Shown in pieces: positions 3,779 through 25,497 of a stretch of 32,000 nt of DNA (positions within the stretch are counted from its first letter, which is position 1; each line of letters starts with the position of its first letter). Origin of the DNA: Acaryochloris thomasi RCC1774 (GTDB lineage Bacteria > Cyanobacteriota > Cyanobacteriia > Thermosynechococcales > Thermosynechococcaceae). A program made the translations under genes and the position numbers. The stretch spans positions 1 to 32,000 of the forward strand of contig NZ_PQWO01000026.1 of the NCBI RefSeq assembly GCF_003231495.1, given 5' to 3'. Below the pieces are notes generated by a model. It was not told the DNA's origin. It saw only the letters and a program-made list of their open reading frames with translations, and did no database searches.

Positions 3779-3788
3779 TTTCAAGCTG

Positions 3789-5113: not shown

Positions 5114-5157
5114 AGGAGATAAAGCTCTCAATATCGTTATTGATTCGTGAGGCTCTC

Positions 5158-7145: not shown

Positions 7146-9200
7146 ATGATTTTTTCTTCTAAATCTGATGACTGGGACAAACTCAACCGAAGAGATTTAG
7201 TTGCTGCTATTGACGGTGTCTTTAAGACTCTCCACGATTATGTCGATGAGTCAAAAAATCACACGTCAAGCCATAGATTCCGCTCAAACACGAGCAATGC
7301 AGTTCACTCTCAAGAGGTCAATATGTCTGTGCCGACTGCTCTTGAGCAAGTCTGCAAGCACTTTGGTCTCACTGACTTTGAACGAAGTGTGCTTTTACTT
7401 TGTGCAGGGACTGAGCTAGATACACGATTTCAGCCCCTATATGCTAAAGCACACGGTACCAGTAGCCATAGATACTACCCGACATTCGGTTTAGCTCTTT
7501 CCGTCTTGCCCAATCCACATTGGAGCGCATTGATATCTAATGGACCACTGCGGCACTGGAACCTCATCCGTCTTGGTCAAGGGGATGCTTTGACAAATCG
7601 TTCTCTTTATATCGATGAGCGCATTCTTCATTATCTTGTGGGCACTCAAGCAATCGATGCCTCGTTGACAGAGATTTCTGACCTTCCACAAGAAACCAGA
7701 CAGCTAGTCCCATCTCATCAGCGGCTGGCTGACGAAATCACAGCCCTGTGGCAACAGCAGTCTTCTGGGGATAGCTTACCAGCGATACAGTTGTGTGGAC
7801 CGGAGATAGAAGATAAGACAGATATCGCCCAGGTTGTGTGTCACCAATCTAAGCAACGGGTGAGTTCTATGAGCTGCAATCGCCTCCCCGTCAATTCAGA
7901 GGACTTGGCTGCGTTCATTCGTCGATGGGAGCGAGAAAGCATTCTAGAGCAGAGAATCCTGCTCCTGAACTGTAATGACCTAGATCGGTCAGATCAGCTC
8001 TTGCAATCTGCTCTCAATCACCTACTTGAAGAAGTCGAAGGGCCTGTCATCATTACCTGCCGAACGCCATTTCAGGGCATTAGGCGTCAGATGATTCGCT
8101 TTGACGTTCCTAAACCGTTCCCTCAAGAACAATTGATGTCTTGGGAAGCCTCTATCGCAGAACTCAAAGCCCAGCTCAACGGACAAGGACATCTCGTACC
8201 CGAGCCAGAGCAGCTCTCTCAAGATTTGCAGGAACTCACGGCTCAATTTCAACTGGGTACCTCTATGATTCGACAAGCCTGCACGGCAGCAGTTGGACAG
8301 TTGAAAACGCAATCTACACCGTCCCTCAAACAGACGCTATGGCAGAGTTGTCGAGTTCAAGCGCGTCCAGGTCTAGATGAGTTGGCAGAGCGTCTCGAAT
8401 CTAAACTGTCCTGGGATGATTTAGTCCTGCCGCCACTGCAGCAAGAGACCCTAGAATCAATCTCGGCCCACGTTCGACAACGGGCCAAAGTCTACGAAAG
8501 GTGGGGATTTGCTGCAAAAAACAGGCGTGGCTTAGGCATTACAGCGCTCTTCGCAGGACCAAGCGGCACCGGGAAAACCCTTGCTGCCGGGGTCCTCGCC
8601 AATGAGCTGAAGCTGGACCTCTACAAAATCGAGCTGTCGTCAGTGGTCAGCAAGTACATTGGCGAAACCGAAAAAAATCTCCAGCGGATCTTTGATGCAG
8701 CAGAGACCGGTGGCGCAATCTTGCTCTTTGACGAAGCAGACTCTATTTTTGGTAAACGAAGTGAAGTAAAAGATTCCAAGGATCGCTATGCCAACCTCGA
8801 GGTTAGTTACTTACTGCAGCGCATGGAATCCTATCCAGGGTTGGCTATTTTAACGACAAATTTGCAAAGCAGCTTAGATCCGGCTTTTCTGCGACGGCTG
8901 CGATTTGTGACTCAATTTTCTCTTCCTGATGCGGCTCATCGGGCCGAGATTTGGCGACGAGTCTTTCCATCAACGGCCCCGACAGCAGGGCTTGCTTTTG
9001 ACCGACTGGCTCAACTCAATACACCGGGTGGAAACATTCGTAACATTGCCTTGAATGCCGCTTTTATCGCTGCCGATGAGGGAGATTCCGTTCAAATGAA
9101 GCATATTTTGAAGGCAACTCAAACGGAGTATGAAAAGCTAGGCAAGTCCTTAACCAGTGTTGAAGTCTCGGGCTGGGTTGACGAAAAAGTTCCTATTTGA
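7146..9200 (+). CDS. AAA+ ATPase of the eCIS Afp15/Pvc15 type
   Basis: 684 aa with AAAGGAG RBS. C-terminal AAA module with Walker A GPSGTGKT and Walker B ILLFDEAD, plus SKYIGETEKNLQRIFD and LDPAFLRRLRF. The long N-terminal region (FGLTDFERSVLLLCAGTELD) is as in eCIS-associated ATPases. Confidence 0.9.
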   Translation: MIFSSKSDDWDKLNRRDLVAAIDGVFKTLHDYVDESKNHTSSHRFRSNTSNAVHSQEVNMSVPTALEQVCKHFGLTDFERSVLLLCAGTELDTRFQPLYAKAHGTSSHRYYPTFGLALSVLPNPHWSALISNGPLRHWNLIRLGQGDALTNRSLYIDERILHYLVGTQAIDASLTEISDLPQETRQLVPSHQRLADEITALWQQQSSGDSLPAIQLCGPEIEDKTDIAQVVCHQSKQRVSSMSCNRLPVNSEDLAAFIRRWERESILEQRILLLNCNDLDRSDQLLQSALNHLLEEVEGPVIITCRTPFQGIRRQMIRFDVPKPFPQEQLMSWEASIAELKAQLNGQGHLVPEPEQLSQDLQELTAQFQLGTSMIRQACTAAVGQLKTQSTPSLKQTLWQSCRVQARPGLDELAERLESKLSWDDLVLPPLQQETLESISAHVRQRAKVYERWGFAAKNRRGLGITALFAGPSGTGKTLAAGVLANELKLDLYKIELSSVVSKYIGETEKNLQRIFDAAETGGAILLFDEADSIFGKRSEVKDSKDRYANLEVSYLLQRMESYPGLAILTTNLQSSLDPAFLRRLRFVTQFSLPDAAHRAEIWRRVFPSTAPTAGLAFDRLAQLNTPGGNIRNIALNAAFIAADEGDSVQMKHILKATQTEYEKLGKSLTSVEVSGWVDEKVPI

Positions 9201-9302: not shown

Positions 9303-12300
9303 ATGAAATGCGATCGCAACTCCCCTCTCTTCCCAAAACTTAGCTCCCTCTCGGCGCTAACTATAGGCCTATGCCTCAGTGTTGCGCCGCAGGATACCCT
9401 CGCACAACTAACGCCCGATCAAACCTTAGGGCCTGAATCATCACGGGTTGAGAGACAGCCGCAGCCTACCCCAACCAACCTAATTACAGGGGGTGCTCGT
9501 CGTGGACAAAACCTTTTCCATAGCTTTCAAGACTTTAATGTAGAGTCAGGGCAGTCTGTCTTTTTTCGCAACCCCAACGGCGTCAACAACATTCTGACAC
9601 GGGTAACGGGTGGTTCTACATCAAATATAGATAGCGTGCTGGGCGTTCGGGGGGACGCAAATCTGTTTGTCATCAATCCCAACGGGATTATTTTCGGCCC
9701 TGATGCCTCTCTAGATGTCGGCGGCTCCTTTGTGGCGACCACTGCAGATGCTCTCCAATTCAATGAACAGGATTCTTTCAGTGCGACTTCGCCTCAGACC
9801 TCAAGCTTGCTGAGTATTCAGCCTTCTGCATTCTTCTTTAACCAAATCAATTCTGGAGAGATTACTAATCAATCACAGGCGTTCTTTGATTTTGCCAGCG
9901 GACTAACCGGAGGAATATCGACTGCAGGTCTAGGGGTTCCAGAGGGGAAAAGTCTCTTATTGGTTGGCGGAAATATCAATATCGATGGAGGAGGATTGAA
10001 TGCTATCAGTGGCCGGGTAGAGTTAGCCAGTGTTCAAGCAGGTCAAACTCTAGAAATTGACGAAGCCGATGGTGAGCTATCTTTACAATCTTTGTCGCCC
10101 GCGCAGGCTAGAAATATCACATTTGATAATGCAGGTATTACCACGACAGGAGCGAGAGGCCTGATTCGTTTTCAAGGTAACAACCTTATATTGACAGATA
10201 GCACCATTAGTACCTTTATCCCAACTACTTCTAGTTCAGTAGAGGGAGTTAATACAGGTATTGTTCTGATGGCACAGGATCTCGTGTTAGACGACACCTC
10301 TATAACAACCGCTCTCTTCTCCTCTCCTGAACAAGTCGGAGATATTTTGATTGAAGCAGATCAGTTCATAGCACGAAATAATAGTTCTCTATCGGCAGGA
10401 ACGTCAACTTCGGGTAACGAGGGAAACATTATTATTAAGGTAAAAGATTTATTCTCCCTCGATAGCAGTAGCCTTTCGACCGAATCAACCAATGTCATCC
10501 TCGACGCAGGCGAGAGTGGAGATATTGAGATTGATGCTGAAGAATTCACCTCTCTGAATAATGCAGAGATTTCCACTTCCACCATAGGTATAGGAAACGC
10601 AGGAGATATTTTAATTGAAGCCAGGAACCGAGTCCTACTTGATAATAGTCAAATTCGTAGTGAATCAAACCCATCCCCGTCAGATCCTTTTTCAGAGATA
10701 GGTGAGGCAGGTGAGATTCAAATAAAATCAGCACAATTCACGGCTCAGAATAATTCACAGTTATCCACGTCAACATCAACCACTGGGAATTCAGGCAATA
10801 TCATCATTAAAGTGGATGACTTTTCATTAATAAGCAATAGTCGTATCCGCAACAACATAAGATCTTCAGCTAGCGGAGATGGAGGAAATATAAACATTGA
10901 TGCTGGTCAATTTACTGTACAAGATGACTCAGTTATATCGACTAATCTCAATGGTCAAAGCAGCGCCGGAAGCATCAATATAAAAGCAGATAATCTTTCA
11001 TTAATAAACGATGGACGTATTCGGAGTGATATAAATTCATTGGGTAGAGGAGATGGAGGAGACATCAACATTGAGTCTGATCAATTTACTGCACAGAACG
11101 ACTCAGTTATATCTACCAATCTTTTTGGCCAGGGTAAGACAGGAAATATCAATATCAAAGCAGATGATTTTTCACTAGCAAGTAATAGTCGCATCCGTAG
11201 CGATGTTAACGCTTCTGCCATCGGAAATGGAGGAAATATTAATATTGATATCGACCGTTTTTCCGCACAAAACGACTCGTTCCTATTCACGATTTTATTT
11301 GGTCAAGGAACGTCAGGTGATATCAACGTCAGAGCAGATGATTTCTCACTAGTAAGTAACAGTCGCATCCGTAGCGACATTAATTCTTCAGCTGAAGGAG
11401 ATGGAGGGGATATTAATATTGAAGCTGAACAGTTCTCTGCAGATCAAAATTCATCTTTGACCTCAAATCTTTTTGGTCAAGGCAAGGCAGGGAATATCAG
11501 TATCAAAGCTTCTGCTTTCGACTTGAACGATGAAAGCAGTCTTCGTAGTGATGTTGTTGATTTTGCCAGAGGCGATGGAGGAGATATTAATGTTGTCGCT
11601 GAACAGTTTTCTGCACAAGATGCACGGATATCTACTATCCTCTTTGACTTTGGCGAAGGCAACACAGGAAATATTGATGTTACTGCGAAAGATTTGATGT
11701 TAACTAATACCGATATCTCTAGTGATACTAGGCCTAGCTCTAAAGGTGATGCAGGAAATATTCAGATTAAAGCCGAAAAGCTTATAAGTCAGAACAGTAA
11801 GTTTCTCACAACAACGTCAAGCCGGGGAAATGCAGGGGGCTTGACTTTTAATGTTAGTGATAAGTTTCTGCTTGTGGATAGCTCTATTTTGAGTGATAAC
11901 TTTCAGACTTTAGAGGACGACGGCAGAACTATCTTTGTAGACTTTGTGGGCTCGGGTGACGCAGGCAACATCGAGATTAGTGCTAGACAACTCATTAGTC
12001 GTAATAGTTTGTCCTCTAGTACAACACTGAGTCAGGGCAATGCAGGGAACATTACTTTCAATATTGACGATTTGCTCCAGATTAACAACAGTCGTATCTT
12101 CAGTGCTGTAGGCTTCGAAGATGCAACAGGTGGTGCAGGTAATGTTGAGATTAATGCTGGACAGCTGATCAGCCAAAATGGTAGTGGGTTTTCGACATCA
12201 ACATCCGGTCAAGGCGATGCAGGAGACTTGACTTTTGATATTGGCGGTCAGCTTTTGCTTAACAACAGTTCTGTCTTGAGCGAGTCAGGTCCCCGAGCCA

Positions 12301-13340
12301 CGGGGCGCGGAGGCAATATCAATATTCAAACGCAGGAATTACAGGTTACGAATGGGGCGGTAGTCTCTGCAGCAAATTTTGGTAATGGCGCAGGTGGTAA
12401 TCTAAGCGTCTCTGCCTCAAAGGGGATTGAATTAAGGGGCACAGATAGTCAATTATCTGTCGCATCAGATGCAATGGCCTCTGGTAACGCAGGCAGCTTA
12501 AACGTTGAAACTCAGGACCTAGCCATCGCTGGTGGTGCTCAAATCACAGTGAGCAGTCTTCAAGCCCAGGCCGGAACCCTGACAATCAATGCGAATTCGC
12601 TCGAACTCAATCAAGGAACTCTAAGTGCAGAAACAGGTGAAAGTGGTCAAGAGGGAGCCAACATCAATCTACAAATCTCTCAAATCTTGACGCTTAGAAA
12701 TGAGAGCCTTATTTCTGCTGACGCATTTGGAGAGGCCAATGGTGGAAATATCTTAATCAATGCTCTTTTGCTCCTTGCATTGTCGCCAGAAGGCCCCAAC
12801 GGCAGTGACATCATCGCCAATGCCATCGATGGTCAAGGTGGAAATATCAGCATTACTACTCAAGGACGCTTTGGCATTGAACCCCGCGATTCGCTAACGC
12901 CACTGAACGATATTACGGCAAGTTCAAGTACTAACCTTCCGGGGGAAATTTTCATTCAAACTTCGGAAGTTGATCCTAGCGATAACATCATCAGTCTTCC
13001 TATTCGGCCCCCCGAGGTGAAAGTCGTCAAAAGTTGTTCAGCTCGGCAGGGCCGCAGCGATTTTGTGGTGACAGGGCGAGGTGGATTGCCACCGACAGCC
13101 CAAGAGTCACTGGGGCAGGATGCCTTTCAGGTAGGTTTAGTGACGCTCGATCCTTCGACAGAACCCAACGTAAAAAATCACAATGTGCTGCCCCAAAAAA
13201 CGCAATCACCACCATCTAAAAGTTCAGTGCAGCAAATAAACGAAGCTCAAGGCTGGAGGAAAAATGCGAAAGGGAAATTGATGCTAATAGCTGAAACTCC
13301 ATCGGCAAGCGTATCGCCCCAGCCCAGCTGTCAGGGGTAA
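9303..13340 (+). CDS. filamentous-haemagglutinin-like exoprotein: signal peptide + TPS (haemagglutination activity) domain + long beta-helix repeat region
   Basis: 1345 aa. Signal-like N-terminus LSALTIGLCLSVAPQDTLAQ. TPS-domain hallmarks GQNLFHSFQDFNV, NILTRVTGG, ANLFVINPNGIIFG. After that come tens of G(D/N)(A/G)GNI(N/T)I-type beta-helix repeats. Confidence 0.9.
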   Translation: MKCDRNSPLFPKLSSLSALTIGLCLSVAPQDTLAQLTPDQTLGPESSRVERQPQPTPTNLITGGARRGQNLFHSFQDFNVESGQSVFFRNPNGVNNILTRVTGGSTSNIDSVLGVRGDANLFVINPNGIIFGPDASLDVGGSFVATTADALQFNEQDSFSATSPQTSSLLSIQPSAFFFNQINSGEITNQSQAFFDFASGLTGGISTAGLGVPEGKSLLLVGGNINIDGGGLNAISGRVELASVQAGQTLEIDEADGELSLQSLSPAQARNITFDNAGITTTGARGLIRFQGNNLILTDSTISTFIPTTSSSVEGVNTGIVLMAQDLVLDDTSITTALFSSPEQVGDILIEADQFIARNNSSLSAGTSTSGNEGNIIIKVKDLFSLDSSSLSTESTNVILDAGESGDIEIDAEEFTSLNNAEISTSTIGIGNAGDILIEARNRVLLDNSQIRSESNPSPSDPFSEIGEAGEIQIKSAQFTAQNNSQLSTSTSTTGNSGNIIIKVDDFSLISNSRIRNNIRSSASGDGGNINIDAGQFTVQDDSVISTNLNGQSSAGSINIKADNLSLINDGRIRSDINSLGRGDGGDINIESDQFTAQNDSVISTNLFGQGKTGNINIKADDFSLASNSRIRSDVNASAIGNGGNINIDIDRFSAQNDSFLFTILFGQGTSGDINVRADDFSLVSNSRIRSDINSSAEGDGGDINIEAEQFSADQNSSLTSNLFGQGKAGNISIKASAFDLNDESSLRSDVVDFARGDGGDINVVAEQFSAQDARISTILFDFGEGNTGNIDVTAKDLMLTNTDISSDTRPSSKGDAGNIQIKAEKLISQNSKFLTTTSSRGNAGGLTFNVSDKFLLVDSSILSDNFQTLEDDGRTIFVDFVGSGDAGNIEISARQLISRNSLSSSTTLSQGNAGNITFNIDDLLQINNSRIFSAVGFEDATGGAGNVEINAGQLISQNGSGFSTSTSGQGDAGDLTFDIGGQLLLNNSSVLSESGPRATGRGGNINIQTQELQVTNGAVVSAANFGNGAGGNLSVSASKGIELRGTDSQLSVASDAMASGNAGSLNVETQDLAIAGGAQITVSSLQAQAGTLTINANSLELNQGTLSAETGESGQEGANINLQISQILTLRNESLISADAFGEANGGNILINALLLLALSPEGPNGSDIIANAIDGQGGNISITTQGRFGIEPRDSLTPLNDITASSSTNLPGEIFIQTSEVDPSDNIISLPIRPPEVKVVKSCSARQGRSDFVVTGRGGLPPTAQESLGQDAFQVGLVTLDPSTEPNVKNHNVLPQKTQSPPSKSSVQQINEAQGWRKNAKGKLMLIAETPSASVSPQPSCQG
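10701..11918 (+). repeat. seven in-frame tandem 174-bp (58-aa) diverged repeat units inside the FhaB-like gene
   Basis: The unit-initial GG(A/T/C)GA(T/G) or GGAAAT codon pairs recur at 10701, 10875, 11049, 11223, 11397, 11571 and 11745, spaced exactly 174 bp. The protein unit is about GDGGNINIDAGQFTAQNDSVISTNLFGQGKAGNINIKADDFSL.SNSRIRSDINSSA. Flanking repeats have 192- and 210-bp periods. Confidence 0.85.
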
Positions 13341-13343
13341 GTT

Positions 13344-16244
13344 ATGAAGATTATGTTCTACCTTCAGCTACTGTGCAGATCCGCTATTTATGTTTTCTTG
13401 ATGAAGAGCAAGTACCCACTGCCTGCTCTAGCAATCTCAGCAGTCAGGATGTTATCCACCCAAAAACGCCACCGACCTGAAGTGATAGCAGCCCCTTTCA
13501 CGTCTACTCAGGGAACAGTCGTGACTCAGCCCAATTGTAATTTAGCCCCAACAGTCTCTGTGAACTTTCTTCAATGCGGTTCAAAGTCTGTCTATCCCCG
13601 CTCTTTTTTGTTGCTGAGCACAGTCTGCCTGTGTTTATCCACAGCACCTGCAAAAGCTAATACAGCACGGACGTTCCAAGTTGCTTCAGAACAAGCAGCT
13701 TCAGAACGACCTGCCCCCACGGCTAATGCTGAAGATCTAGTCCGTCAGGGCCGAACGCTATACGACTCAGGACAGTTTACTCAGGCAGCTCAGGTCTTCC
13801 AGCAGGCTGCACGTGCATTCCGCGGTGGTGGAGATGCATTGAGACAGGCAATGGCTCTGGGCAATCTTTCCCTCACCTATCAACACCTGGGGCAATGGTC
13901 AGCGGCAGAAAAATCTATTTCAGATGGACTTGTACTTCTGAGAGAAGATCAAAATCAAGAGAAGAGCCTGCAACAGCCGCAGGCAGAGCAGAGGTCTCTA
14001 CAGGTCTTAGCCCAGCTACATGATATTGAGGGACGCCTAGAATTAGAGCGCGGACGGCCTCAAGCTGCACTGACCCGATGGCAACAGGCCGCTGCAGCCT
14101 ATACCCAGCTTGATGATCCTGCAAAACTTTGGCAGAGCCGAATCAATATGGCCCAGGCCCAGCAGGCTTTAGGGCGATATCGTCAGGCCCGTTCCATGCT
14201 GTTAGAGGCTAAAACTCAGCTCGCCAGCCAGTCAGACTCAATATTGAAGGCAACAGGGCTACGCAGTCTAGGTAATGTATTTCGAGTTGTAGGTGATCTC
14301 CAGCTTTCTCAACAAGCGCTAGAAGAGAGTCTGGCGATTATGACTCAAGTTTCAGATGCTCAAAATACTCAGGATCAGGTTAGCACTCGCTTGAGTTTAG
14401 GGCGGACCCTGCGTGCCCAAGGCGAGATTTATCAGGCGTTAGCGTTATTTCAATCGGCTGCAAACAGCACTGACTCGCTAGAGCTGCAGACTCAAGCCCA
14501 GCTTCAGGAACTATCACTGCGCGTCGCCAATCAAGAGCTAGCGGCGGCGGAGGCTCTGTGGCCCCAACTGGTGTCTCAGATCAAGCAGCTTCCTTCTGGC
14601 CGGACGGCGATATACGCCAGTGTTTTCCTAAGTGAGATTCTTGCTCAGCTGGAAACGGCTAACGCCAGTGGTGCAATACGGCAATCATCGTCTAGCTCTC
14701 GCGAGAGTGCTCAGCTATTGGCAGCGAGTATCCAGCAAGCCAAGTATTTGGGTGATTTGCGGGCCGAAAGCTTAGCTTTGGGAGCTCTCGGTAAGATTTA
14801 CGAGAAAAGTCAGCAGCAGGCAGATGCGATTGATCTGACCCAGAAGGCTTTACTCCTGTCACAATCGCTGGATCTGCCGGATCTGTCCTATCAATGGCAG
14901 TGGCAGCTAGGCCGGCTGCAGCAAAGCGAAGGAGAGATCGAAGCCTCTATTGCCTCATATTCTGATGCGGTGAACAATCTTCAGACTTTGCGGCAAGATT
15001 TAGCGACGCTCAATCCAGAGGTGCAATTCTCCTTTCGGGACAAAGTGGAGCCGGTCTATCGCGAGTTGGTGAGCTTGCTTCTGCTGGCTCCAGATGGGAT
15101 ACCTCCGAGTCAAGCGCAACTCCAGCAAGCGAGAACGGTGCTGGAGTCTTTAAAAATTGCAGAACTGGAAAATTACTTTCGCTCAGCCTGTCTTGATGCG
15201 ACGGAAACCATTGACAAAGTGGTCGACCAGCAAGATTCAAATGCGGCTGTCCTGTATCCCGTTGTGCTCAAAGATCGGCTGGCGCTGATTCTCAAGATTC
15301 CACGACAGGAGCAGCTTGAGTTCTTTAGTACAGAGGTGTCTCAGGGTACGTTCGAGGAAACGGTTAACCAGCTCCAGGTGTCTCTGCCCGATATTACCCG
15401 CGTGTCTAAGGTCAAACAGTCGTCGCAGCAGGTTTATGACTGGTTGATTCGCCCGATTGAGCAGACGCTGGCGGCCAATGAAATCGATACGTTAACTTTT
15501 GCCTTGGACGGTCCGCTGCGAAATATTCCGATGGCAGTGCTCTATGACCAGCAACGGCAGCAGTATCTGGTGGAAAAATATGCGATCGCACTTGCTCCCA
15601 GCCTCCAGCTCGTCACTCCGAAGCCGCTTAAAAAAGTCCCACTTAACGTCTTGGCCGCTGGCATTAACGAACAGCGAATTGTAGAGGGACGCGAGTTTGC
15701 ACCGTTATCCAATGTCAGCAACGAACTAAGTCAGATCGATACGCAACTTTCAAACAGTCAGAATCTGATCAATCAGCGATTCACTGTCAAAAACCTAACC
15801 AGTACGCTGCGGGCAAAGCCGTTCTCTATCGTACATATTGCTACCCACGGAGAATTCAGCTCTAGCCTGGACAACACCTATCTGCTCACTTGGAACCAGC
15901 TTCTCAAAGGGAATGAGTTAGCAACTCTACTGCAGCAGAGTGATGATGATCAAAACGGTATTGAACTCCTGGTGCTGAGCGCTTGTCAGACCGCCGTCGG
16001 AGATGAGCGAGCCACGCTTGGATTAGCGGGCATTGCTGTCCAGGCGGGGGCACGCAGTACGCTGGCTACACTGTGGTCCATTGATGATCAGTCTACTTCT
16101 GTGCTGATGAGCCAGTTCTATCAAGCGCTGAAGGCCGGACAAACAAAGGCGGAGGCATTAAGAACGGCCCAGCTAGCGGCTTTGGACCAAGATCGACGCC
16201 CCTATTTGTGGGCACCCTACGTCTTGGTCGGAAACTGGCTTTAA
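13344..16244 (+). CDS. TPR-repeat CHAT-domain (caspase-like) protease, probably exported
   Basis: C-terminal CHAT signature with a His/Cys dyad (IVHIATHGEF ... LLVLSACQTAVGD ... WAPYVLVGNWL). The central ~500 aa are TPR-like. A signal-peptide-like stretch RSFLLLSTVCLCLSTAPAKA sits at aa ~86-105 of the maximal ORF, so the true start may be ATG 13449 or GTG 13560. The maximal ORF starts 3 nt after the FhaB stop. Confidence 0.85.
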   Translation: MKIMFYLQLLCRSAIYVFLMKSKYPLPALAISAVRMLSTQKRHRPEVIAAPFTSTQGTVVTQPNCNLAPTVSVNFLQCGSKSVYPRSFLLLSTVCLCLSTAPAKANTARTFQVASEQAASERPAPTANAEDLVRQGRTLYDSGQFTQAAQVFQQAARAFRGGGDALRQAMALGNLSLTYQHLGQWSAAEKSISDGLVLLREDQNQEKSLQQPQAEQRSLQVLAQLHDIEGRLELERGRPQAALTRWQQAAAAYTQLDDPAKLWQSRINMAQAQQALGRYRQARSMLLEAKTQLASQSDSILKATGLRSLGNVFRVVGDLQLSQQALEESLAIMTQVSDAQNTQDQVSTRLSLGRTLRAQGEIYQALALFQSAANSTDSLELQTQAQLQELSLRVANQELAAAEALWPQLVSQIKQLPSGRTAIYASVFLSEILAQLETANASGAIRQSSSSSRESAQLLAASIQQAKYLGDLRAESLALGALGKIYEKSQQQADAIDLTQKALLLSQSLDLPDLSYQWQWQLGRLQQSEGEIEASIASYSDAVNNLQTLRQDLATLNPEVQFSFRDKVEPVYRELVSLLLLAPDGIPPSQAQLQQARTVLESLKIAELENYFRSACLDATETIDKVVDQQDSNAAVLYPVVLKDRLALILKIPRQEQLEFFSTEVSQGTFEETVNQLQVSLPDITRVSKVKQSSQQVYDWLIRPIEQTLAANEIDTLTFALDGPLRNIPMAVLYDQQRQQYLVEKYAIALAPSLQLVTPKPLKKVPLNVLAAGINEQRIVEGREFAPLSNVSNELSQIDTQLSNSQNLINQRFTVKNLTSTLRAKPFSIVHIATHGEFSSSLDNTYLLTWNQLLKGNELATLLQQSDDDQNGIELLVLSACQTAVGDERATLGLAGIAVQAGARSTLATLWSIDDQSTSVLMSQFYQALKAGQTKAEALRTAQLAALDQDRRPYLWAPYVLVGNWL

Positions 16245-16264
16245 AGACTCACGCTCCATCCCTG

Positions 16265-17122
16265 CTACTGAGGGGAGAACTGCTCAATGATGGGTTCATC
16301 CGCGACATCCTGCAGTCCGGCTTCAACGAGAAGATTGGACCAGTTACGACCCTGCGATCTCGCCGACCGGGTCAAGGTGTCATACCAAAAAACACTTTGA
16401 GAGCCTGCTACATCTGTGGTCGCTGCACTTGCTGACGGTGTGTTCGGCGCTGGAGATTCTCTTTTGAGCCAAGCATCGACGTAAAAGTACTCTGACTGAG
16501 CCGTAGAGTCACCGCAGTATAGTTTGAAGTACCAATGGTATTCCTGGTCAGGCTGCAGTGCATACTGCTCTGCATTGGGAAGATTGATGCCAATAGAACC
16601 GGATGCTGACGATAGCGGCAAATCGGTTCGGTAAAGATCTTCTCCGGCTTTATTCTGCAGCACAAATTCTCCCGCTCTCGCCTGATTGCCTGCAGGAACA
16701 TAAACCCAAAACGTGGGGTAAGCTACCGCGGTCGAAGCCATGTAAGAAATCGAACGTTGACTCTGTCCAGACGTGCTTTCAACACCAGGAACCAGCGCCG
16801 TCAGCGGCTTAGAGGCTGTTGGACAGTTATTCCGGCTAGCACCACCTCTGCGTCGTCCAGTGGGCGCGCCTCGATCTTTGAGCTTAGGCAGTGTGCCGGT
16901 TGCGTTATTGGGACTCGCTCCCCCCCTTTGACGCCCCACTGGGGCACCCCGATCCTTGAGCTTGGGCAGTGAGGATCCTTCAGATAGCTTTTTCACGCTG
17001 GTTGCAGCCGTCTGCGCCAGGGCAGAGAAAGGTGTGGCACCGAACAATAGGGGCAAAGCGATGCCCACTGACATCAGGGAAACTGACGAAGGCTTACTTC
17101 TCAGGATAGACGTCTTTTCCAT
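16265..17122 (-). CDS. DUF928 family protein with signal peptide
   Basis: YPTFWVYVP...GEFVLQNKAGEDLYRTDL...YHWYFKLYCG...YVDAWLKR is the DUF928 core. Start chosen at ATG 17122 (MEKTSILRSKPSSVSLMSVGIALPLLFGATPFSALAQ). The track start at 17185 would overlap the kinase gene by 85 nt. ATG 17074 is also possible. Confidence 0.8.
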   Translation of the reverse strand: MEKTSILRSKPSSVSLMSVGIALPLLFGATPFSALAQTAATSVKKLSEGSSLPKLKDRGAPVGRQRGGASPNNATGTLPKLKDRGAPTGRRRGGASRNNCPTASKPLTALVPGVESTSGQSQRSISYMASTAVAYPTFWVYVPAGNQARAGEFVLQNKAGEDLYRTDLPLSSASGSIGINLPNAEQYALQPDQEYHWYFKLYCGDSTAQSEYFYVDAWLKRESPAPNTPSASAATTDVAGSQSVFWYDTLTRSARSQGRNWSNLLVEAGLQDVADEPIIEQFSPQ

Positions 17123-19359
17123 AGGAACAGCACAGCTAGTTGGGCTGAGAATAATGCGATCGCGGCAGGGACAAGCGGAATCCATCCACCTTGAGTTAGT
17201 ATACCAAAGCTAATTCCGAACAGGAGGGTGAAGGACATTGCTCCTGCAATAGCGAGATATAGCGGTTTATGCACCGCCCAGGCCAATATGCCGCCCAATA
17301 ACGACCAGGCTCCGATCCAAAGCGCCTCTATCGGTAGGGACCACCACCAGAGTTGCGATCGCTCTTGCAAAGCAATGCTCAGCAGTTGGCTAATCATCTG
17401 AGCTTGAATAAAAACGCCAGGGGTCTGTTCTTGGCTGGGGTCAGCGGTATTGCTATAGGGCGTTTGCCAATTATCTGTGGTGCTCGGAGCCGTGATCCCA
17501 ATCAGAACAATCCGATCTTTGAGTGACTCTAGTGACTCGGGCGGAATTTTATTCTCTAATAGGTCTTGAAGAGAGATTTGCTCAGCAACACTGTCAACGG
17601 TCCGCAGCGAGCGATAGTTGAGCAATATTTGATGTCCAGAGTCATCAATCCCCTGATACCCACCTGCATGGGACGGCAAGGGTTTGAGGACCGCCGGACC
17701 CAGCGTCAGATTTCCGTCAGGGTTGGCACCGGGCTGAATACCGTCTGCGGCCAAGTAATGAGAGGCAAGCTGCAAACTGAAGGCATAATCTGCTGAGCAG
17801 CTTGAGTTGACCGGAGGTGTTAAATAGATCAGATGACGGCGCACGGTATTTCCGGCGTCATCAATAAAGTCGCTAAAGCCCACTCTATTGCTGGGTAGTT
17901 CGGCCGGAGGTGGGGTGGCATCCGGTGCACCGTCTAGGGGAGAAGCGACTTTGCAGATGCCGAAAAAATTGGGGTTTTGCTGAAGGCGCGTCGCCAGTTC
18001 TGGAACCTCAGGTGTCACTGAAAAATCGCGATAGATATCTAGCCCAATGGCTCGGGGCTGGTAGGTTTCAAGAGTTTCTAGAGCCTGATTGAGGGCCTGA
18101 TCTGAGAGCGACCACCGCATCGACATATTCTGCTGATTTTGATACTGAATGTCGGCTTCATCAACTGTGACTAGCAAGAGCCTAGAATCAGGCATATCAG
18201 CAGGGCGCAGCCCCATCAAATGGTCAAAGGCTTTTAACTCTAGAGGCTGTAAAACGCCCAGGTAACGAGCGCCGAAGATGAAGGTTGCGATCGCAACTCC
18301 TATCCCCAACACCCCCATCAGTGGCTTAACCATTCTGGTCTCATCACGAGTAGGGGCGGGACTCACAACCTCAGCAGTCGTCTCACCGGGGAGTGAAGGA
18401 CTGATCTGCTTCAACGTGGTGTTTTCTGAGGTCTCAGAGTTTGGAATACGGGTCTGTTCTAAGGGCGCATTAACTGCCTCTGACATCCAGGCAAGGCGCA
18501 GCGCCAGCACCTGAGCATTATACAAACGCTCCTCCGGGACAGGTGCAATCAATTCATCAATCAAATTGGCGAAGTGATCAGATATCTGCGGTGCCGCCTG
18601 TCTCCATTCCAGACGGCGTTCTTTATCTTTAGAGAACTCATCAGGACCAACCCCAGTGAGTAGATGCACAAAGGTACGACCCAAGGCAAAAAAGTCAGAG
18701 GAATAGTTCGCCTGTCCTTCGATCTGCTCTGGTGCAGTGTAACCAGGCGTGTAGATACGCGTGACGTCTTCGTCTTCCAGTTTTTTGAGATATGTCGTTG
18801 TCACCTTACGGGCAGCCCCAAAATCAATCAGGGAGACGCCCCCATCCGGACTCACCATAATATTGGAGGGTTTTATATCACGGTGAATCAGGCGCTGCTG
18901 ATGGATGCCCTCTAATATCGGGACTAATAGCTGTAGCCACTCGATCGCGAGTGCTTCCGAGAGCAACTCATTCTCAGCGATCCACTGCTGAAGATTTAAA
19001 CCGGGAATTTTTTCCAGGACGAGACAGTGCAGATCTTTGGGGCCATGCTCTGGCGTAAAGCGAAAATAGTTATCGACCCGAGAGACTGACAAGTGCTTTA
19101 GATCCTTCAGTATCTGAGCCTCTTGCTCAAATAACGTCACCAGCCTACGGCGCTGGTTCGTTAGGACTTTAATAACCTTGGGCACGCCTAGATTATCGAC
19201 CTCAAACACTTCCGTACAGTGATCGGCTTCTAGCTCCCGCAGCGGACGGATGATTCGATAGCGCTCATTGATAACCAGGCTGGTTCCACAAGTTTGGCAA
19301 TAATTGTCCTGCTCTGAATTTTGGCGTTGGGAACAATCAGGATTGATACAAAAACTCAT
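17101..19359 (-). CDS. Ser/Thr protein kinase with N-terminal zinc ribbon, TM helix, extracytoplasmic CHASE2 domain and C-terminal TM bundle
   Basis: 752 aa. Zinc ribbon CINPDC...CQTCG. Hanks kinase motifs VIKVL, HRDIKPSNIM, DFGAAR, YTPGYTAPE. TM helix VLGIGVAIATFIFGA. A CHASE2-like region (LLLVTVDEADI...IGLDIYRD...VGFSDFIDDAGNTVRR) is followed by 3 hydrophobic helices. Confidence 0.9.
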   Translation of the reverse strand: MSFCINPDCSQRQNSEQDNYCQTCGTSLVINERYRIIRPLRELEADHCTEVFEVDNLGVPKVIKVLTNQRRRLVTLFEQEAQILKDLKHLSVSRVDNYFRFTPEHGPKDLHCLVLEKIPGLNLQQWIAENELLSEALAIEWLQLLVPILEGIHQQRLIHRDIKPSNIMVSPDGGVSLIDFGAARKVTTTYLKKLEDEDVTRIYTPGYTAPEQIEGQANYSSDFFALGRTFVHLLTGVGPDEFSKDKERRLEWRQAAPQISDHFANLIDELIAPVPEERLYNAQVLALRLAWMSEAVNAPLEQTRIPNSETSENTTLKQISPSLPGETTAEVVSPAPTRDETRMVKPLMGVLGIGVAIATFIFGARYLGVLQPLELKAFDHLMGLRPADMPDSRLLLVTVDEADIQYQNQQNMSMRWSLSDQALNQALETLETYQPRAIGLDIYRDFSVTPEVPELATRLQQNPNFFGICKVASPLDGAPDATPPPAELPSNRVGFSDFIDDAGNTVRRHLIYLTPPVNSSCSADYAFSLQLASHYLAADGIQPGANPDGNLTLGPAVLKPLPSHAGGYQGIDDSGHQILLNYRSLRTVDSVAEQISLQDLLENKIPPESLESLKDRIVLIGITAPSTTDNWQTPYSNTADPSQEQTPGVFIQAQMISQLLSIALQERSQLWWWSLPIEALWIGAWSLLGGILAWAVHKPLYLAIAGAMSFTLLFGISFGILTQGGWIPLVPAAIALFSAQLAVLFLWKRRLS

Positions 19360-19402
19360 CTATTCTTCTCAGCAGGATTGTGGAATTGTCGCATCAACGC
19401 GC

Positions 19403-21076
19403 TTAAATTTGGCGACGAAGCTCATTCCGCGCTTCGAAGGTTAAGGTGGCCCCCAACAAGATTTGAAGATTATTTCTGGCATACCCCACAGCTAAAGACG
19501 GCTTGTCCTCTAGAAATGCCAGAATTGCCACGAGTTGGGTCTCCATCACTGACTCATCTCGGAACAAACGATAGAGCTTATCCTGAATCGGCTGCTGTAT
19601 GAATCGCTGCTGCTGCTTGGTCTGTGTGGGGTCATCTTCAAAGCCAATTAGGTGACTTCGCAGCAAGTCCAACGTCTCGATTTTTAGGGTTTGACTCTCG
19701 GCCTCAATCTCAGCATAAATCTGATCGATCAAGCGTCCTAGAACATAGTGGGAGACAACAGGCTGCTCAATGGAAAAGAGAATATCACCCGCATCCGCAC
19801 TGCGGTCAATCAACTCTCGCCTTAACAATGACCCCAAAGCCTCAAATAACTCCCCTGTTGAAATAGGAGACAGCAGATTAGCCTGCAGCTTTTCTAAAGG
19901 AATGGGCTGGCCTTCAATCGCCAACCAGTACAGCAGCTCCTGCTCTAGCGCCGACAAGCGCTCAAATTGCTCATCGAGAATATCATTGAGGTCGCCAAAT
20001 ACAATAGTCTGCTGCCCCAAAAAGGCAGAGACATCTCCCCCGAAAATATTTTTGACCATTGTAGCCACAATTTTGAGCGCTAGCGGATTGCCCCGATACA
20101 GGCGAATCAGATCGTCCCATTTCTCAGGGTGTGAAAGATTCCGCTCCTTCAGCAATTCCTCTGCGTCAGACTTCAGCCCCTTCAGCCGCAGCGATCTCAC
20201 TGGCAGCGTATCCCCCTCCCAGCGATCAAACTCACTGGGCTTTTCATTGCTCACAAACACGACCGCACTTTGATGTCGCTGCTGCCCTATACGCTCAAGG
20301 AACTGACCATAACCTTCATAGCCGTCGCGGTATTGTCCGGCTAAGTAACCTTCCTGCAAAATCGCAGTCCCAGCATCCAAAATAATCAAATAGCGATGCT
20401 GTCGCAGAACCGCCATCAGACGCGAAAGCTGATGATCAAGACTCTCACCAGCCTCTACGCTCTGTTGAGTGATCGACTGCAGCAGGTCATTTACGAAATC
20501 GCTCACCGAAGGAGACTGATGCAAACTGCGCCAAATCACAGCATCAAACTGATCCTGAAGCAGATGACCGCACCGCACCGATAGAGCCGTCTTTCCGATG
20601 CCAGCGCCCCCCGTCAAAGCAACGAGGCGACAGTGATCCGTCACCAACCACTGCTTGAGCGTCGCTAATTCTTGCACTCGACCGTGGAACACCGAGACTT
20701 CCGGCGCATTTCCCCACAGCGCCTGCGTCTGATCTTGAAGCTCTAGGGCGAAATCAACGCTAGGAGCCATCTCTACAGGAGACGGGTCAGCTGCAAAGGT
20801 CGGCTCCCTTAACTCTGAATAATGTCGCTCCAGCAAAACCCTTACATTCTTCTTACTGACTTTCTGACTATAAACCTGAGACAACAGCTTCCATAGCCTT
20901 GGACCCGTGACCTGCTTGATGTAAGCCAAGCTGTACTGACACTCTTCAGCCATCTGCTCATAGGTCTTTGCCTGCCAGGCACCTTGAAGAACCAAGCGTT
21001 CGACGGGTTTAAGAGCGCGCCCTACATGGGATAAGACGGCCTGATTGACGTTATTGATCACGGCTTCAAAGTTCAT
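19403..21076 (-). CDS. STAND NTPase (NB-ARC-like) with N-terminal HTH-like domain and no C-terminal repeat sensor
   Basis: 557 aa. The N-terminal ~85 aa (LKPVERLVLQGAWQAKTYEQMAEECQYSLAYIKQVTGPRLWKLLSQVYSQKVSKKNVRVLLE) is the module that heads many cyanobacterial NB-ARC/WD40 proteins. Walker A LTGGAGIGKT, Walker B YLIILDAG, GNPLALKIV motif, then a winged-helix-like LYWLAIEGQPIPLEKL. No WD40/TPR repeats are seen. Confidence 0.8.
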   Translation of the reverse strand: MNFEAVINNVNQAVLSHVGRALKPVERLVLQGAWQAKTYEQMAEECQYSLAYIKQVTGPRLWKLLSQVYSQKVSKKNVRVLLERHYSELREPTFAADPSPVEMAPSVDFALELQDQTQALWGNAPEVSVFHGRVQELATLKQWLVTDHCRLVALTGGAGIGKTALSVRCGHLLQDQFDAVIWRSLHQSPSVSDFVNDLLQSITQQSVEAGESLDHQLSRLMAVLRQHRYLIILDAGTAILQEGYLAGQYRDGYEGYGQFLERIGQQRHQSAVVFVSNEKPSEFDRWEGDTLPVRSLRLKGLKSDAEELLKERNLSHPEKWDDLIRLYRGNPLALKIVATMVKNIFGGDVSAFLGQQTIVFGDLNDILDEQFERLSALEQELLYWLAIEGQPIPLEKLQANLLSPISTGELFEALGSLLRRELIDRSADAGDILFSIEQPVVSHYVLGRLIDQIYAEIEAESQTLKIETLDLLRSHLIGFEDDPTQTKQQQRFIQQPIQDKLYRLFRDESVMETQLVAILAFLEDKPSLAVGYARNNLQILLGATLTFEARNELRRQI

Positions 21077-21150
21077 GTCCCACCCCGTTATTACCCCTAG
21101 AGTTCATACTTTTCTGTACGCTTATTGTTAACAATGGTATGTTAATACCC

Positions 21151-21180
21151 TTGACACGTCAATAGTTCATATTGTATTAA
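21151..21180 (+). promoter_or_regulatory. candidate sigma70-type promoter in the divergent control region
   Basis: Perfect -35 TTGACA (21151-21156), an 18-bp spacer and TATTAA (21175-21180). It is oriented toward the mini-ORF and the histidine kinase operon. Sequence-only guess. Confidence 0.3.
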
Positions 21181-21280
21181 CTAAGTTAATCTCTCGTTAA
21201 GTCCGAGGGGCAGCGCAGAATCAGTATCGTCCATAGGTATTAGGTTCCTGTTATCTATTAAACAAAGGAGTTTGAGGGCT

Positions 21281-21370
21281 ATGAAATTAAGCACTAGCGC
21301 CACTATGACTGAGATAGGACGAAAAGCAGAAGTTAATAAGAAAGGATTATCTGCAAGTTCGGGAACCTAA
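21281..21370 (+). CDS. possible 29-aa mini-ORF / leader peptide (MKLSTSATMTEIGRKAEVNKKGLSASSGT)
   Basis: Strong SD AAAGGAG (21264-21270) 10 nt before the ATG. Too short to evaluate by composition and below the ORF-track cutoff. Confidence 0.2.
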   Translation: MKLSTSATMTEIGRKAEVNKKGLSASSGT

Positions 21371-21544
21371 ACAAAGCGATATTCATCTATGACTTTTAGT
21401 GAACAACTGCATAAGTTAATTTTGAGTTAATATTTCTGCAGCCCACTTACCATCGCACCCAACTGAAAGGGTAGACATTAGACCAAGACAAGGCCAGCCA
21501 CCGCTGCCGAATTAGACCCCTAATAGCACCCAGAGGAAAGAACG

Positions 21545-22696
21545 ATGAGTCAAATTAATCATCTCAATACCCATCTCAAGCTCGTCAGAAAGTCCCGGCC
21601 CCCAATGCAAAAGAGCCGGAAGAGTAGTAAGGTGGAGCGCTTCTTACAGCTACAGATTGACCAGCTTGTCAGTCAACCTCAGATTAAGTGGGCAAGAGTG
21701 GTCTGCGAAGATCCGTCATCGATCCACCATCAACTCGTGGCTCATGCCTCCCAGATCCCCTTCCAGATGTCTCGGGCGACCCTCGCAACCATCCGAACTG
21801 AGGACTGGTTGACAGAGGTTTCTTCTCATTTGGGTTTAAATCCTGTTGCTGGACTGACGACCGGATTCTACTATTGCTCTCTTAACGATCAGAAACCGCA
21901 GTATTTGCTGCTCTTTATAGACGGATCTCCTTCTCATCTCTTGCGCCAGTGGATTAAGCGTACTTCTGAAGTTCTAGAGGAGTCTCTAGAGAGCTATCAA
22001 CAGGCCGCAAAACAATCGCGCAAGATTGAATTGTTGGAAGAAGTTGTGCAGCGCGTGGGGCATCAACTCAGGCATCCGTTGAGCCTCATAAACCTGTATG
22101 CCAACAATCTAGCGGTGGTTCTACCTCAAGGGCCAGAGCAGGAGCAGGTCACTGTTATCAATCAAACTGCGCAAAGTCTCAACCAAATGCTGACGGAGAT
22201 TATGCAGTGCGCCAAAAATGACAAGCTGCAGCTCATTTCTCAAGATTTGCGAAGTCTAATGCAAGAGACGCTAGCAGATTTCCGAGGTTGGATTCAAGAG
22301 AAAGGAATTCGAGTCCGTTTACCTGAGCGCACGGTTAATCTGCCTCTTGATCCACTCCAGATTAAGCAGGCTTTCAATAATTTAATCAGTAACGCCATTC
22401 ACTTTAGCCCCGAAAACAGTGAGCTTTTGATCAACTGGGAGATGGCTCAGGGGAATGTACGGCTGAGTATTTCGGATGAGGGTCCAGGATTGCCGCAAGA
22501 CGATCTAGATAATCTGTTTAAACCGTTTTTTACCCGTCGAGAAGGAGGAACAGGCCTGGGTCTAGCCATTGTCCAGAAAGTTGTCCGTGCTCACGGGGGC
22601 AAACTGTGGGCCAAGAATGTAGCCGGTCGCGGCGCAGAATTTTCAATGAGTTTACCCCGTCTATCTGCAAATCTATCCGAGGATATCGCATGTTAA
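21545..22696 (+). CDS. cytoplasmic sensor histidine kinase (HisKA + HATPase_c) with unrecognised N-terminal sensor region
   Basis: 383 aa. H-box [20 protein letters not shown]-box [12 protein letters not shown]1 DEGPGLP, G2 [19 protein letters not shown]. No TM helices. GAGGA RBS. Confidence 0.9.
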
Positions 22697-23379
22697 ATCA
22701 AGCCGAAAAAACCAAGACTCTCTCTGCTGTATTGGTGGATGACGACCATCAGTTTCGAGCAGGTATCCGCTCTCTTCTCAATTTCTATACTGTTCAAGAT
22801 CAGTCCATTTCGGTTGTGGGAGAAGCCAATCGCCCCGATCTAGCCCTCTCTTTAGTGGGCGATAAGCAGCCTGACTTTGTTCTAATTGATATGGAGCTAA
22901 TTGGAGGAGATGGTCTCTCCTTGCTTCAGCAGATCCAGGACAGTGGTTCATCCTGTAAGACGCTTGTTCTGTCGGGCCACGAGGAAGATAGCTGGATTTA
23001 CCAAGCCATGCAAACGGGCGCAGATGGCTATGTGTTCAAAAGCCAGGTAACCCAGCAGCTTCAAGATGCGATCGCATCCATCATGGATGACCAAATCTAT
23101 CTCCCCCCTGAAGTCGCCACAGGTTTCTTCCGCCGCTTTCAGACCACCCAAGCCTCTCTACCTAGTCAAATCGGTCAACCCTGCGACCTGTCTGAGCGAG
23201 AAAATGAGGTTTTGTATTGGCTGGTGCAGGGCGCTTCAAATGTGGTTATTGCCAAAGAACTCTATATTTCTGTGGCCACGGTTAAAGCACATCTCACTAA
23301 TATCTTTCTGAAGCTGCAGGTGACAAGCCGTACCCAAGCGATTGTGGCCGCCATCAAGATGAATCTAGTTCAGTCGTAG
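22690..23379 (+). CDS. NarL/LuxR-family response regulator (REC + LuxR-type HTH)
   Basis: The ATG at 22690 overlaps the kinase stop (ATGTTAA), indicating translational coupling. REC motifs [67 protein letters not shown]. The track start at 22606 is rejected. Confidence 0.9.
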
Positions 23380-23393
23380 CGTGTGAGGACTTT

Positions 23394-25484: not shown

Positions 25485-25497
25485 GAAGAATATCATC

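Follow-up and report, generated by a model that had tools for sequence, protein, structure and literature searches.

Five adjacent genes in a 32,000-nucleotide stretch of the Acaryochloris thomasi RCC1774 genome (hereafter the window) lie within the gene cluster of a contractile injection system (CIS), and they encode a TpsA-like exoprotein with a two-partner secretion (TPS) domain, a TPR-CHAT protease, a DUF928 protein, a Ser/Thr kinase-CHASE2 receptor, and an NB-ARC protein (Table 1). These genes are tentatively interpreted here as a copy of the kinase/NB-ARC variant of a widespread, multi-copy, and uncharacterised cyanobacterial sensory module that spans the cell envelope. The invariant core of the module consists of a CHASE2 membrane receptor and a secreted DUF928 protein, whose gene immediately follows that of the receptor. 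This core is usually joined by beta-helical TpsA exoproteins and by Sec-exported TPR-CHAT proteins with intact catalytic residues.

A scan with the DUF928 protein alignment A1, covering one genome per GTDB species, found 256 relatives. The 80 best loci, retained together with flanks of 10 kb, come from the Nostocales, Pleurocapsales, Coleofasciculaceae, Microseira, and the Acaryochloris/Thermosynechococcaceae group. With the window proteins as queries against their ORFs, CHASE2 was found in 76 of the 80 loci, TPR-CHAT in about 58, a TPS exoprotein in 52, and NB-ARC and kinase-CHASE2 in 15 each. The four loci without CHASE2 comprised two short contigs in which the upstream sequence is missing (L050 and L053) and two loci with full flanks (L003 and L011). 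CHASE2 and DUF928 genes were co-directional in the tabulated pairs; the spacing is between -285 and +90 nt in about 60 of 77 and reaches up to about 3.9 kb in the others. An earlier reading of the window made from the sequence alone had described such genes as repeated neighbors, and the five families are indeed non-randomly co-localised across cyanobacteria.

The sequence-only reading overlooked that the cassette represents one of two co-varying variants. When the other ORFs of the loci were clustered and cluster representatives were scanned, the 60 CHASE2 proteins other than the kinase-headed ones were seen to carry a cytoplasmic CHAT head in place of the kinase, with DUF1822 encoded ahead (variant A). 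A CHAT head occurred with DUF1822 in 53 loci versus none, a kinase head (variant B) occurred with NB-ARC in 14 versus none, and no mixed case was observed (Fisher 1e-14, without phylogenetic correction). Conversely, NB-ARC was paired with a kinase-CHASE2 receptor in 14 of the 15 loci in which it was found. A response regulator (RR) of the RR-AraC type was encoded in 29 of the 80 loci and a histidine kinase (HK) in 20. Among the modules displayed that are not associated with a CIS, a divergent RR-AraC gene, often with a PAS-HK, was found in 11 of 14 of variant B and 6 of 10 of variant A, and dCache-HAMP genes were often alongside both variants. Some genomes encode paralogous copies, for example two loci in Scytonema NIES-4073 and three in Mojavia pulchra. 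A complete kinase-variant module was also found on a contig labelled "uncultured Acetobacteraceae bacterium" (L017, CAZZZY010000016.1), which probably reflects the mis-binning of a cyanobacterial contig in a lichen metagenome and not a proteobacterial occurrence.

Part of the module overlaps with a known computational prediction. Kaur, Iyer, Burroughs, and Aravind (2021, eLife; PMC8195603) described EACC2-caspases with a variable C-terminus (e.g. CHASE2), encoded with an extracytoplasmic function (ECF) sigma factor and DUF1822, and proposed that a stimulus-induced activation of the autopeptidase leads to a transcriptional output. In 60 of the 80 loci, the module is of the variant that shares this core, in that a cytoplasmic caspase/CHAT head fused to a transmembrane (TM) segment and a CHASE2 sensor is encoded beside DUF1822 and a sigma-like protein, and the proposed logic, from a stimulus to a cytoplasmic effector and transcription output, is shared as well. 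The full combination was found in 53-60 related loci. In contrast, the window copy has a Zn-ribbon and Ser/Thr kinase head, and an HTH-NB-ARC protein takes the place of DUF1822 and the sigma factor; tblastn searches of the window found no remnants of DUF1822, sigma-like, RR-AraC, or tpsB genes. Because of the kinase head and the lack of a DUF1822 or sigma-like gene in the window, this copy is regarded as a sister variant and not as a member of the EACC2-caspase systems. The text of PMC8195603 does not mention DUF928, FhaB, haemagglutinin/TPS, POTRA, or CIS, which makes the secreted arm and the pairing with DUF928 additions of this study. Neither CHASE2 nor contractile systems are mentioned by Kaur et al. 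(2020), and a literature search found nothing joining DUF928 with CHAT, CHAT with two-partner secretion or TpsB/FhaC, or any of DUF928, TpsA, and TPR-CHAT with the EACC2-caspase systems; DUF928 itself turned up in one unrelated paper. Hence, the variant with kinase and NB-ARC, the pairing with DUF928, the secreted arm of TpsA and TPR-CHAT, and the CIS context appear to be undescribed.

All five open reading frames (ORFs) proposed from the sequence agreed with the ORF listing, and their domain assignments passed the curated cut-offs in a Pfam scan of every window ORF of at least 100 amino acids (aa). The receptor contains a Hanks-type kinase domain at residues 62-285 (Pkinase, E 8.8e-30), with the catalytic Lys in VIKVL at 62, the HRD loop HRDIKPSN at 159, and DFG at 179, preceded by a 4-Cys Zn-ribbon prefix (NCBIfam NF045510). 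The CHASE2 domain covers residues 358-691 (PF05226, E 3.5e-67) and was placed by a TM scan between an N-terminal TM segment (346-364) and two C-terminal ones (702-720 and 727-745), as expected for the receptor with an extracytoplasmic sensor that had been proposed. Residues 1-315, which include the kinase, matched the PADLOC models of the anti-phage kinase PD-T4-6 (2e-97). This head was the only matching part, as PADLOC found no match on TpsA, DUF928, or NB-ARC, and its sequence suggests that it may be related to defence kinases.

The 557-aa NB-ARC protein (Pfam E 4.2e-12) carries the Walker A motif GGAGIGKT. Its AlphaFold model (pLDDT 77) was matched by Foldseek to Apaf-1, plant NLR resistosomes, CED-4, and MalT. 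It shares the NBD-HD1-WHD fold and the Walker A motif with the STAND/NB-ARC switches, including Apaf-1, CED-4, plant NLRs, MalT, and bacterial Avs. However, it differs from them by having a helical N-terminal domain of putative HTH_VMAP-M9 type, and not a CARD, TIR, or nuclease domain, and no C-terminal repeat sensor was seen in the model or by Foldseek. An HTH had been assigned to this protein from its sequence, and this claim stands only in part. The N-terminal helical domain of 89 residues was not matched as an HTH by the local Pfam at E<=10 or by a PDB sequence profile, while nearly all of 120 listed homologues carry a precomputed PF26355 (HTH_VMAP-M9) annotation. With this annotation and the helical model as its backing, the HTH assignment has indirect support.

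The DUF928 protein (Pfam E 3.7e-37; the deposited A. thomasi RCC1774 protein P0001 is 100% identical) belongs to a large family with 4,868 clusters at 50% identity and E<=1e-3. Its signal peptide is followed by a disordered tail with the near-invariant motif P-x-x-G-A-P-x-G-R-R-R-G-G-x-S-R-x-x-C-P, and the pattern G[RK][RK][RKQ][GA]G was found in 77 of 81 DUF928 proteins. Downstream of the tail, the AlphaFold model includes a confident beta-sandwich and two helices. Among 30 aligned DUF928 proteins, a full tandem duplication of the tail motif (LPKLKDRGAPxGRxRGG) was observed only in the clade of the window (P0001, P0002, and P0004), while P0014 has a partial extra copy.

The exoprotein has the TPS domain of type Vb secretion (PF05860, E 5.3e-47, profile positions 1-240 of 252), which is also matched by TIGR01901 (NCBIfam, NPXG haemagglutinin N-terminal domain; 7e-25). 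Its N-terminus is hydrophobic, NPNG motifs occur at residues 90 and 125, and the beta-helix region contains about 2.3 copies of a 174-nt (58-aa) tandem repeat with 72-77% matches. The Cys-flanked C-terminal domain had no match in Pfam at E<=10. It carries the motif F-x-x-T-G-R-G-G-L-P, of which [TS]GRGG was found in 45 of 57 module TpsAs. In the TPR-CHAT protein, Pfam identified TPR and a CHAT domain (PF12770, E 4.5e-63). The proposed catalytic motifs held up in the alignment, as His835 (HIATHG) and Cys881 (SACQT), the His-Cys dyad of clan CD, were conserved in 53 of 53 orthologues. A hydrophobic signal lies at residues 86-106 of the maximal ORF, and 52 of the 53 orthologues have an N-terminal hydrophobic export signal. 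Signals were likewise recognised on TpsA and DUF928 by hydrophobicity and cleavage-site pattern, in line with the sequence-only reading, and the overall architecture fits the envelope-spanning system for sensing and proteolysis that it had envisaged. The tight gene junctions that it described were found for NB-ARC and the kinase (43 nt) and for the kinase and DUF928, whose overlap amounts to 85 nt with the maximal ORF and to 22 nt with the 285-aa deposited protein. The 3 nt that separate the end of the TPS gene from the maximal CHAT ORF were also found, but a start-codon scan gave the GTG at 13560 as the likely start of the CHAT gene, with which the actual gap would be about 220 nt.

A TpsB transporter (POTRA_2 and ShlB barrel of the Omp85 type) is not encoded with TpsA in the window: Pfam found none on the ORFs of at least 100 aa, and the best tblastn match to six TpsBs of the module had an E of 0.36. 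The sequence-only reading had noted this absence, which is not peculiar to the locus: 46 of 50 module TpsAs with judgeable surroundings have no adjoining TpsB, and the orphan TpsA of the window is thus typical of the module. TpsB was present in at least 12 of the 80 DUF928 loci and, where its neighbors lie inside the fetched locus, is part of a tpsA-tpsB-(TPR-CHAT) operon with overlapping ORFs; the one exception seen was L012, where it is placed after DUF928. TpsB belongs to an ancestral tpsA-tpsB-CHAT operon.

In these features the module resembles the type Vb systems FhaB/FhaC/SphB1 and CdiA/CdiB, which have in common an N-terminal signal, a TPS domain with NPNG, a long beta-helix, and a linked protease gene, and related module loci carry the tpsA-tpsB-protease operon. 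The module differs in that its protease is a periplasmic TPR-CHAT of clan CD and not a subtilisin autotransporter, its TpsA is mostly an orphan, the C-terminal domain of TpsA is conserved and non-toxin-like, and there is a link to a CHASE2 receptor. A competing explanation is that two independent systems lie side by side, neither of them acting on the other: TpsA and TPR-CHAT would be a secretion and maturation unit for an adhesin or exoprotein, with CHAT maturing TpsA as SphB1 does FhaB, and NB-ARC, kinase-CHASE2, and DUF928 would be an unrelated sensor. The two units are convergent and transcribed separately, tpsA-tpsB-CHAT exists as an operon of its own, and a tpsA-tpsB pair without a sensor is found in Chlorogloea. 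Six of the 15 variant-B loci encode neither TPS nor TPR-CHAT within 10 kb, and the maturation of FhaB by a dedicated protease is established (PMC6070651). Nevertheless, the pair of CHASE2 and DUF928 comes with TPS or TPR-CHAT in 53 of the 60 loci of variant A and in 9 of the 15 of variant B. This holds in different orders and with the genes in varying sequence, and it is above the expectation for unrelated neighbors; this explanation is considered unlikely.

If the five genes do form one envelope-spanning module, TpsA would be exported by a TpsB encoded elsewhere and reside at the cell surface, with its Cys-flanked C-terminal domain facing the periplasm. The periplasmic TPR-CHAT could then process TpsA, the disordered GRRRGG tail of DUF928, or both, and thereby make or modulate a periplasmic signal, for which cleavage at the basic GR..GG tails would be a plausible route. 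DUF928, as a predicted beta-sandwich, may serve as a co-receptor or ligand of the CHASE2 ectodomain. CHASE2 would in turn activate the kinase, leading to phosphorylation of the repeat-less NB-ARC protein, which might oligomerise and act through its putative HTH. That the partner would be the substrate of the receptor head is suggested by the co-variation of the two. At the A. thomasi locus, the signal may converge on the HK, RR, Ser/Thr kinase (STK), and FHA regulators that are native to the CIS.

The relation to the CIS was examined in 12 loci with ATPase homologues of at least 63% identity, picked solely for long contigs. In seven of them, genes of the module families lie after the cis15-type ATPase and ahead of the regulatory or baseplate genes, in at least four non-homologous arrangements. 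In the window and the related L002, the ATPase is followed by the kinase/NB-ARC cassette. In Nostoc sp. (L082) and N. flagelliforme CCNUN1 (L165), it is directly followed by sigma-like, DUF1822, CHAT-CHASE2, DUF928, and TPS genes, and L082 has an additional TpsB upstream of the CIS. Chlorogloea (L163) has its tpsA-tpsB pair, without the sensor, between the ATPase and the HK. Two JGI metagenome contigs (L168 and L170) encode DUF1822 and a partner of about 500 aa that also occurs in 12 DUF928 loci, and L168 in addition encodes a CHAT-STAND-WD40 (CHAT-nSTAND-WD40) protein. By a rough estimate based on gene counts per Nostocales genome, module families would occur in fewer than about 10% of random 10-kb segments, and on this assumption the recurrence is unlikely to be due to chance.

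As the sequence-only reading stated, CIS genes flank the cassette on both sides (sheath, tube, and ATPase on the left; gp25 and Baseplate_J on the right). The non-structural stretch is larger than it claimed (about 9303-28900), and it overlooked that the genes next to the cassette, for HK, RR, STK-PBP, and FHA, make up a regulatory block that is native to the CIS. Orthologues of this block are found in the cassette-free locus L081, where the order is ATPase, HK, RR(GerE), STK-PBP, FHA, a 323-aa ORF, a 132-aa ORF, gp25, and Baseplate_J. The window proteins are 52-78% identical to those of L081, L163, L168, L164, and L170, and orthologues also occur in the more distant cyanobacterial CIS of L090. 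In contrast, the HKs adjoining NB-ARC in non-CIS modules are PAS-HKs and only about 27% identical to the window HK. The cassette therefore appears to have been inserted between the ATPase and the native block. NB-ARC diverges from the CIS HK here, and from a PAS-HK (or RR-AraC) in most non-CIS copies of the kinase variant. CIS-embedded copies of both variants are without the PAS-HK/RR-AraC pair, and on this ground the module is probably an additional sensory input to CIS regulation. The coupling to the injection machine that had been suggested from the position of the cassette, for example through triggering, surface anchoring, or a cell-death decision, is a possibility: the placement recurs beyond the window (L002, L082, L165, L163, L168, and L170), but no CIS gene was found within 10 kb in 79 of the 80 DUF928 loci. 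The link to the CIS is thus real but limited, and the recurrent placement hints at, but does not prove, a signal feed to the machine.

That figure is one of several points that weigh against the interpretation of the five genes as a sensory module tied to the CIS. The only CIS-linked DUF928 locus is L002, a 68%-identical relative, and a role in the CIS would consequently be secondary and lineage-specific. Nothing related to the module follows the ATPase in L081, L166, L167, and L169 (Acaryochloridaceae and others), and in L164 (Dulcicalothrix) transposase fragments and AAA_35/WD40 proteins are found there. Unrelated genes also occupy the slot in L170 (an OprB porin and an oxidoreductase) and L169 (glycosidase-like genes). 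The five genes are not core CIS genes, as they are missing from L081, L166, L167, L169, and 79 of 80 distant CIS loci. The latter were obtained by a metagenome scan with the ATPase (42-53% identity), are mostly non-cyanobacterial, and do not represent a cyanobacterial background; the remaining one, L090, has DUF928 beside tube genes. Regarding the module itself, the locus counts are not phylogenetically independent, and the export signals were called heuristically, without SignalP. Foldseek matched DUF928 only to generic beta-sandwiches that bind carbohydrates or lipids (Wzt and porphyran carbohydrate-binding modules, MD-2, and RhoGDI), with low TM-scores. The GRGG motif is absent from 12 of the 57 TpsAs, its Arg is not universal, as the L163 TpsA with an adjoining TpsB reads TGTGG, and its apparent invariance in alignment A4 is biased because A4 was built from motif-positive TpsA sequences only. 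The TGR..GG resemblance between the C-terminal domain of TpsA and the N-terminus of DUF928 is limited to a short motif, and hhalign found no homology between them (probability 0.3%). No TpsB is known for A. thomasi from the search, which covered the 32-kb window. Finally, we infer each step of the chain that would lead from periplasmic proteolysis and CHASE2 to the kinase, NB-ARC, and CIS regulation.

The main competing explanation is an autonomous island for conflict, defence, or stress sensing that landed in an integration hot spot and shares the neighborhood, but not the function, of the CIS. The unrelated contents of the slot in L164, L169, and L170 and the module-free L081, L166, and L167 fit such a hot spot, with transposase fragments, AAA_35/WD40 STANDs, a porin, and metabolic genes in some genomes and an empty slot in L081 and L166. 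Furthermore, the CIS-independent DUF928 modules have their own PAS-HK/RR-AraC output, the kinase head resembles the anti-phage PD-T4-6 kinases, and STAND and caspase modules are typical of conflict systems (Kaur et al.). It is less readily explained by an island why at least four non-homologous arrangements drawn from one small set of families fill the same slot in 7 of 12 loci, why the CIS-embedded copies of both variants lost their own two-component pair, and why the cassette is still joined to the CIS-type HK-RR-STK-FHA block in both L001 and L002. The island is accordingly regarded as possible but somewhat doubtful.

Other roles within the CIS locus were also considered, namely TpsA as a polymorphic toxin similar to those of contact-dependent inhibition (CDI), or TpsA and CHAT as cargo effectors of the CIS. 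In extracellular CIS of the PVC/Afp type, payload genes follow closely after the structural operon and lie near the gene of the ATPase, which would agree with cargo, and a TPS domain with a long beta-helix would agree with a toxin. Caspase-like domains are known in polymorphic toxins (PMC3482391). However, the C-terminal 150 aa of TpsA are conserved across module loci and not polymorphic, and the next gene encodes TPR-CHAT, with no immunity-like small ORF after TpsA. Sec-type signals route TpsA, CHAT, and DUF928 to the periplasm and not to a cytoplasmic tube, and the same genes overwhelmingly occur without a CIS. Both roles are highly improbable and were rejected.

Table 1. Positions of the cassette, its parts, and the surrounding features in the window.
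Feature	Position	Strand	Evidence
Five-gene cassette (TpsA, TPR-CHAT, DUF928, kinase-CHASE2, NB-ARC)	9303-21076		ORF listing, Pfam
TpsA-like exoprotein, 1345 aa; signal peptide, TPS domain (nt 9402-10154), beta-helix repeat region	9303..13340	+	Pfam, TIGR01901, NPNG motifs, TRF
TpsA beta-helix region with tandem repeats	11049-11509	+	TRF
Cys-flanked C-terminal domain of TpsA (~150 aa); TGRGGLP motif at nt 13071-13085	12888..13337	+	alignment A4
TPR-CHAT protease, maximal ORF; probable start GTG 13560	13344..16244	+	Pfam
TPR-CHAT signal peptide	13560-13661	+	
TPR region	13728-15002	+	
CHAT domain	15417-16235	+	
CHAT catalytic His codon	15846-15848	+	
CHAT catalytic Cys codon	15984-15986	+	
Secreted DUF928 protein; deposited start 17122 (285 aa); beta-sandwich 16289-16849	16265..17185	-	Pfam, AlphaFold model
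Duplicated disordered motif GAPxGRxRGG; copies 16919-16948 and 16841-16870	16841..16948	-	invariant columns of A1
Ser/Thr kinase-CHASE2 receptor; 4-Cys Zn-ribbon 19276-19350, kinase 18505-19176, TM, CHASE2 17287-18288, C-terminal TMs	17101..19359	-	
Kinase head (residues 1-315)	18415-19359	-	PADLOC
HTH_VMAP-M9 - NB-ARC STAND protein, 557 aa; N-terminal helical domain 20810-21076, NBD-HD1-WHD core ~19757-20725	19403..21076	-	
Pvc16-like, sheath, three gp19-type tube genes, second Pvc16_N, small ORF, WHD+AAA cis15-type ATPase	663-9200		Pfam
130-aa ORF between Pvc16_N and ATPase	6626-7018	+	
cis15-type AAA+ ATPase (WHD + AAA); left edge of variable slot	7146..9200	+	Pfam; 100% identical to A. thomasi RCC1774 protein P0121
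Intergenic stretch; NB-ARC (-) diverging from CIS-native HK (+)	21077..21544		
CIS-native regulatory block, outside cassette: HK, RR(GerE), Pkinase-like/TM/PBP_like_2, Zn-ribbon-FHA	21545..26040	+	Pfam
STK-PBP	23394-25484		
FHA protein	25471-26040		
ORF without family assignment	26320-27300	+	
ORF without family assignment	27530-28426	-	
gp25 and Baseplate_J; right-hand CIS structural block	28989..31618	+	Pfam

At the cassette borders, no direct repeats or insertion scars were found, and a comparison with L081 showed no alignable intergenic remnant. A promoter and terminator scan of the stretch between NB-ARC and the HK yielded two weak sigma-70-like matches on the - strand, based on the consensus only and fewer than in shuffled sequences. 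In the regulatory block, both the FHA protein and STK-PBP open with Cys-rich, Zn-ribbon-like stretches. The two ORFs between this block and gp25 have no Pfam or NCBIfam family and lie in an A-rich region of low GC (0.38-0.40), and by eye their N-termini are long, basic, and disordered-looking. The first is kept in L081 (323 aa), while the product of the second contains a Cys/His-like motif, "DGDCSTLARAY...HYW"; both are possible candidates for CIS cargo or effectors. The 130-aa ORF ahead of the ATPase had weak matches to HNH/GH-E nucleases (E about 0.005), and a 144-aa ORF with a faint HNH match is found at the corresponding position of L081.

The presence of a kinase and an FHA protein in the locus of a contractile machine invites a comparison with the H1 type VI secretion system (H1-T6SS) of P. 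aeruginosa, which is controlled by the threonine-phosphorylation pathway TagQRST-PpkA-Fha1-PppA. The likeness is that a Ser/Thr kinase of the membrane, equipped with a periplasmic sensor domain, is encoded within the locus of the machine together with periplasmic or outer-membrane accessories and an FHA protein. In contrast, the sensor domains in the window are unrelated, no PP2C phosphatase was seen there, and the CIS is of the Afp/PVC-like lineage. It could nevertheless be imagined that a CIS other than a T6SS has a functional counterpart of TagQRST-PpkA-Fha1 that acts through a periplasmic caspase-like protease cascade. TpsA, TPR-CHAT, DUF928, and CHASE2 would then form an exchangeable trans-envelope trigger, by which a surface event, such as contact, attack by a predator or phage, or envelope damage, would be converted to Ser/Thr phosphorylation (caspase-like cleavage in the other variant) and further to CIS assembly or firing and a decision on cell lysis. 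Such a trigger is considered quite improbable.

The window shares an AAA+ ATPase and a cluster of sheath, tube, and baseplate genes with two systems that are tied to stress-induced cell death, namely the cyanobacterial CIS anchored to thylakoids (Weiss et al., 2022; PMC8894136) and the cytoplasmic CIS of Streptomyces. A contiguous cluster is described for Anabaena (all3313-all3327), and the text of PMC8894136 does not mention kinase or FHA genes, whereas the CIS of the window includes the HK/RR/STK/FHA block and a variable slot.

For the families involved, the module offers a point of entry. To our knowledge, no ligand has been known for CHASE2 since its definition, and DUF928 is a large family with no assigned function and essentially no literature. 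The near-obligate CHASE2-DUF928 pairing, together with the co-varying head and partner, provides a concrete and testable handle on both. The computationally described caspase/STAND "conflict" systems of multicellular bacteria also gain a cell-surface side from the secreted arm, which adds type Vb exoproteins and a caspase-like protease that is exported. If the recurrence of module genes in the slot between cis15 and gp25 is functional, it would identify sensory inputs to the cyanobacterial CIS.

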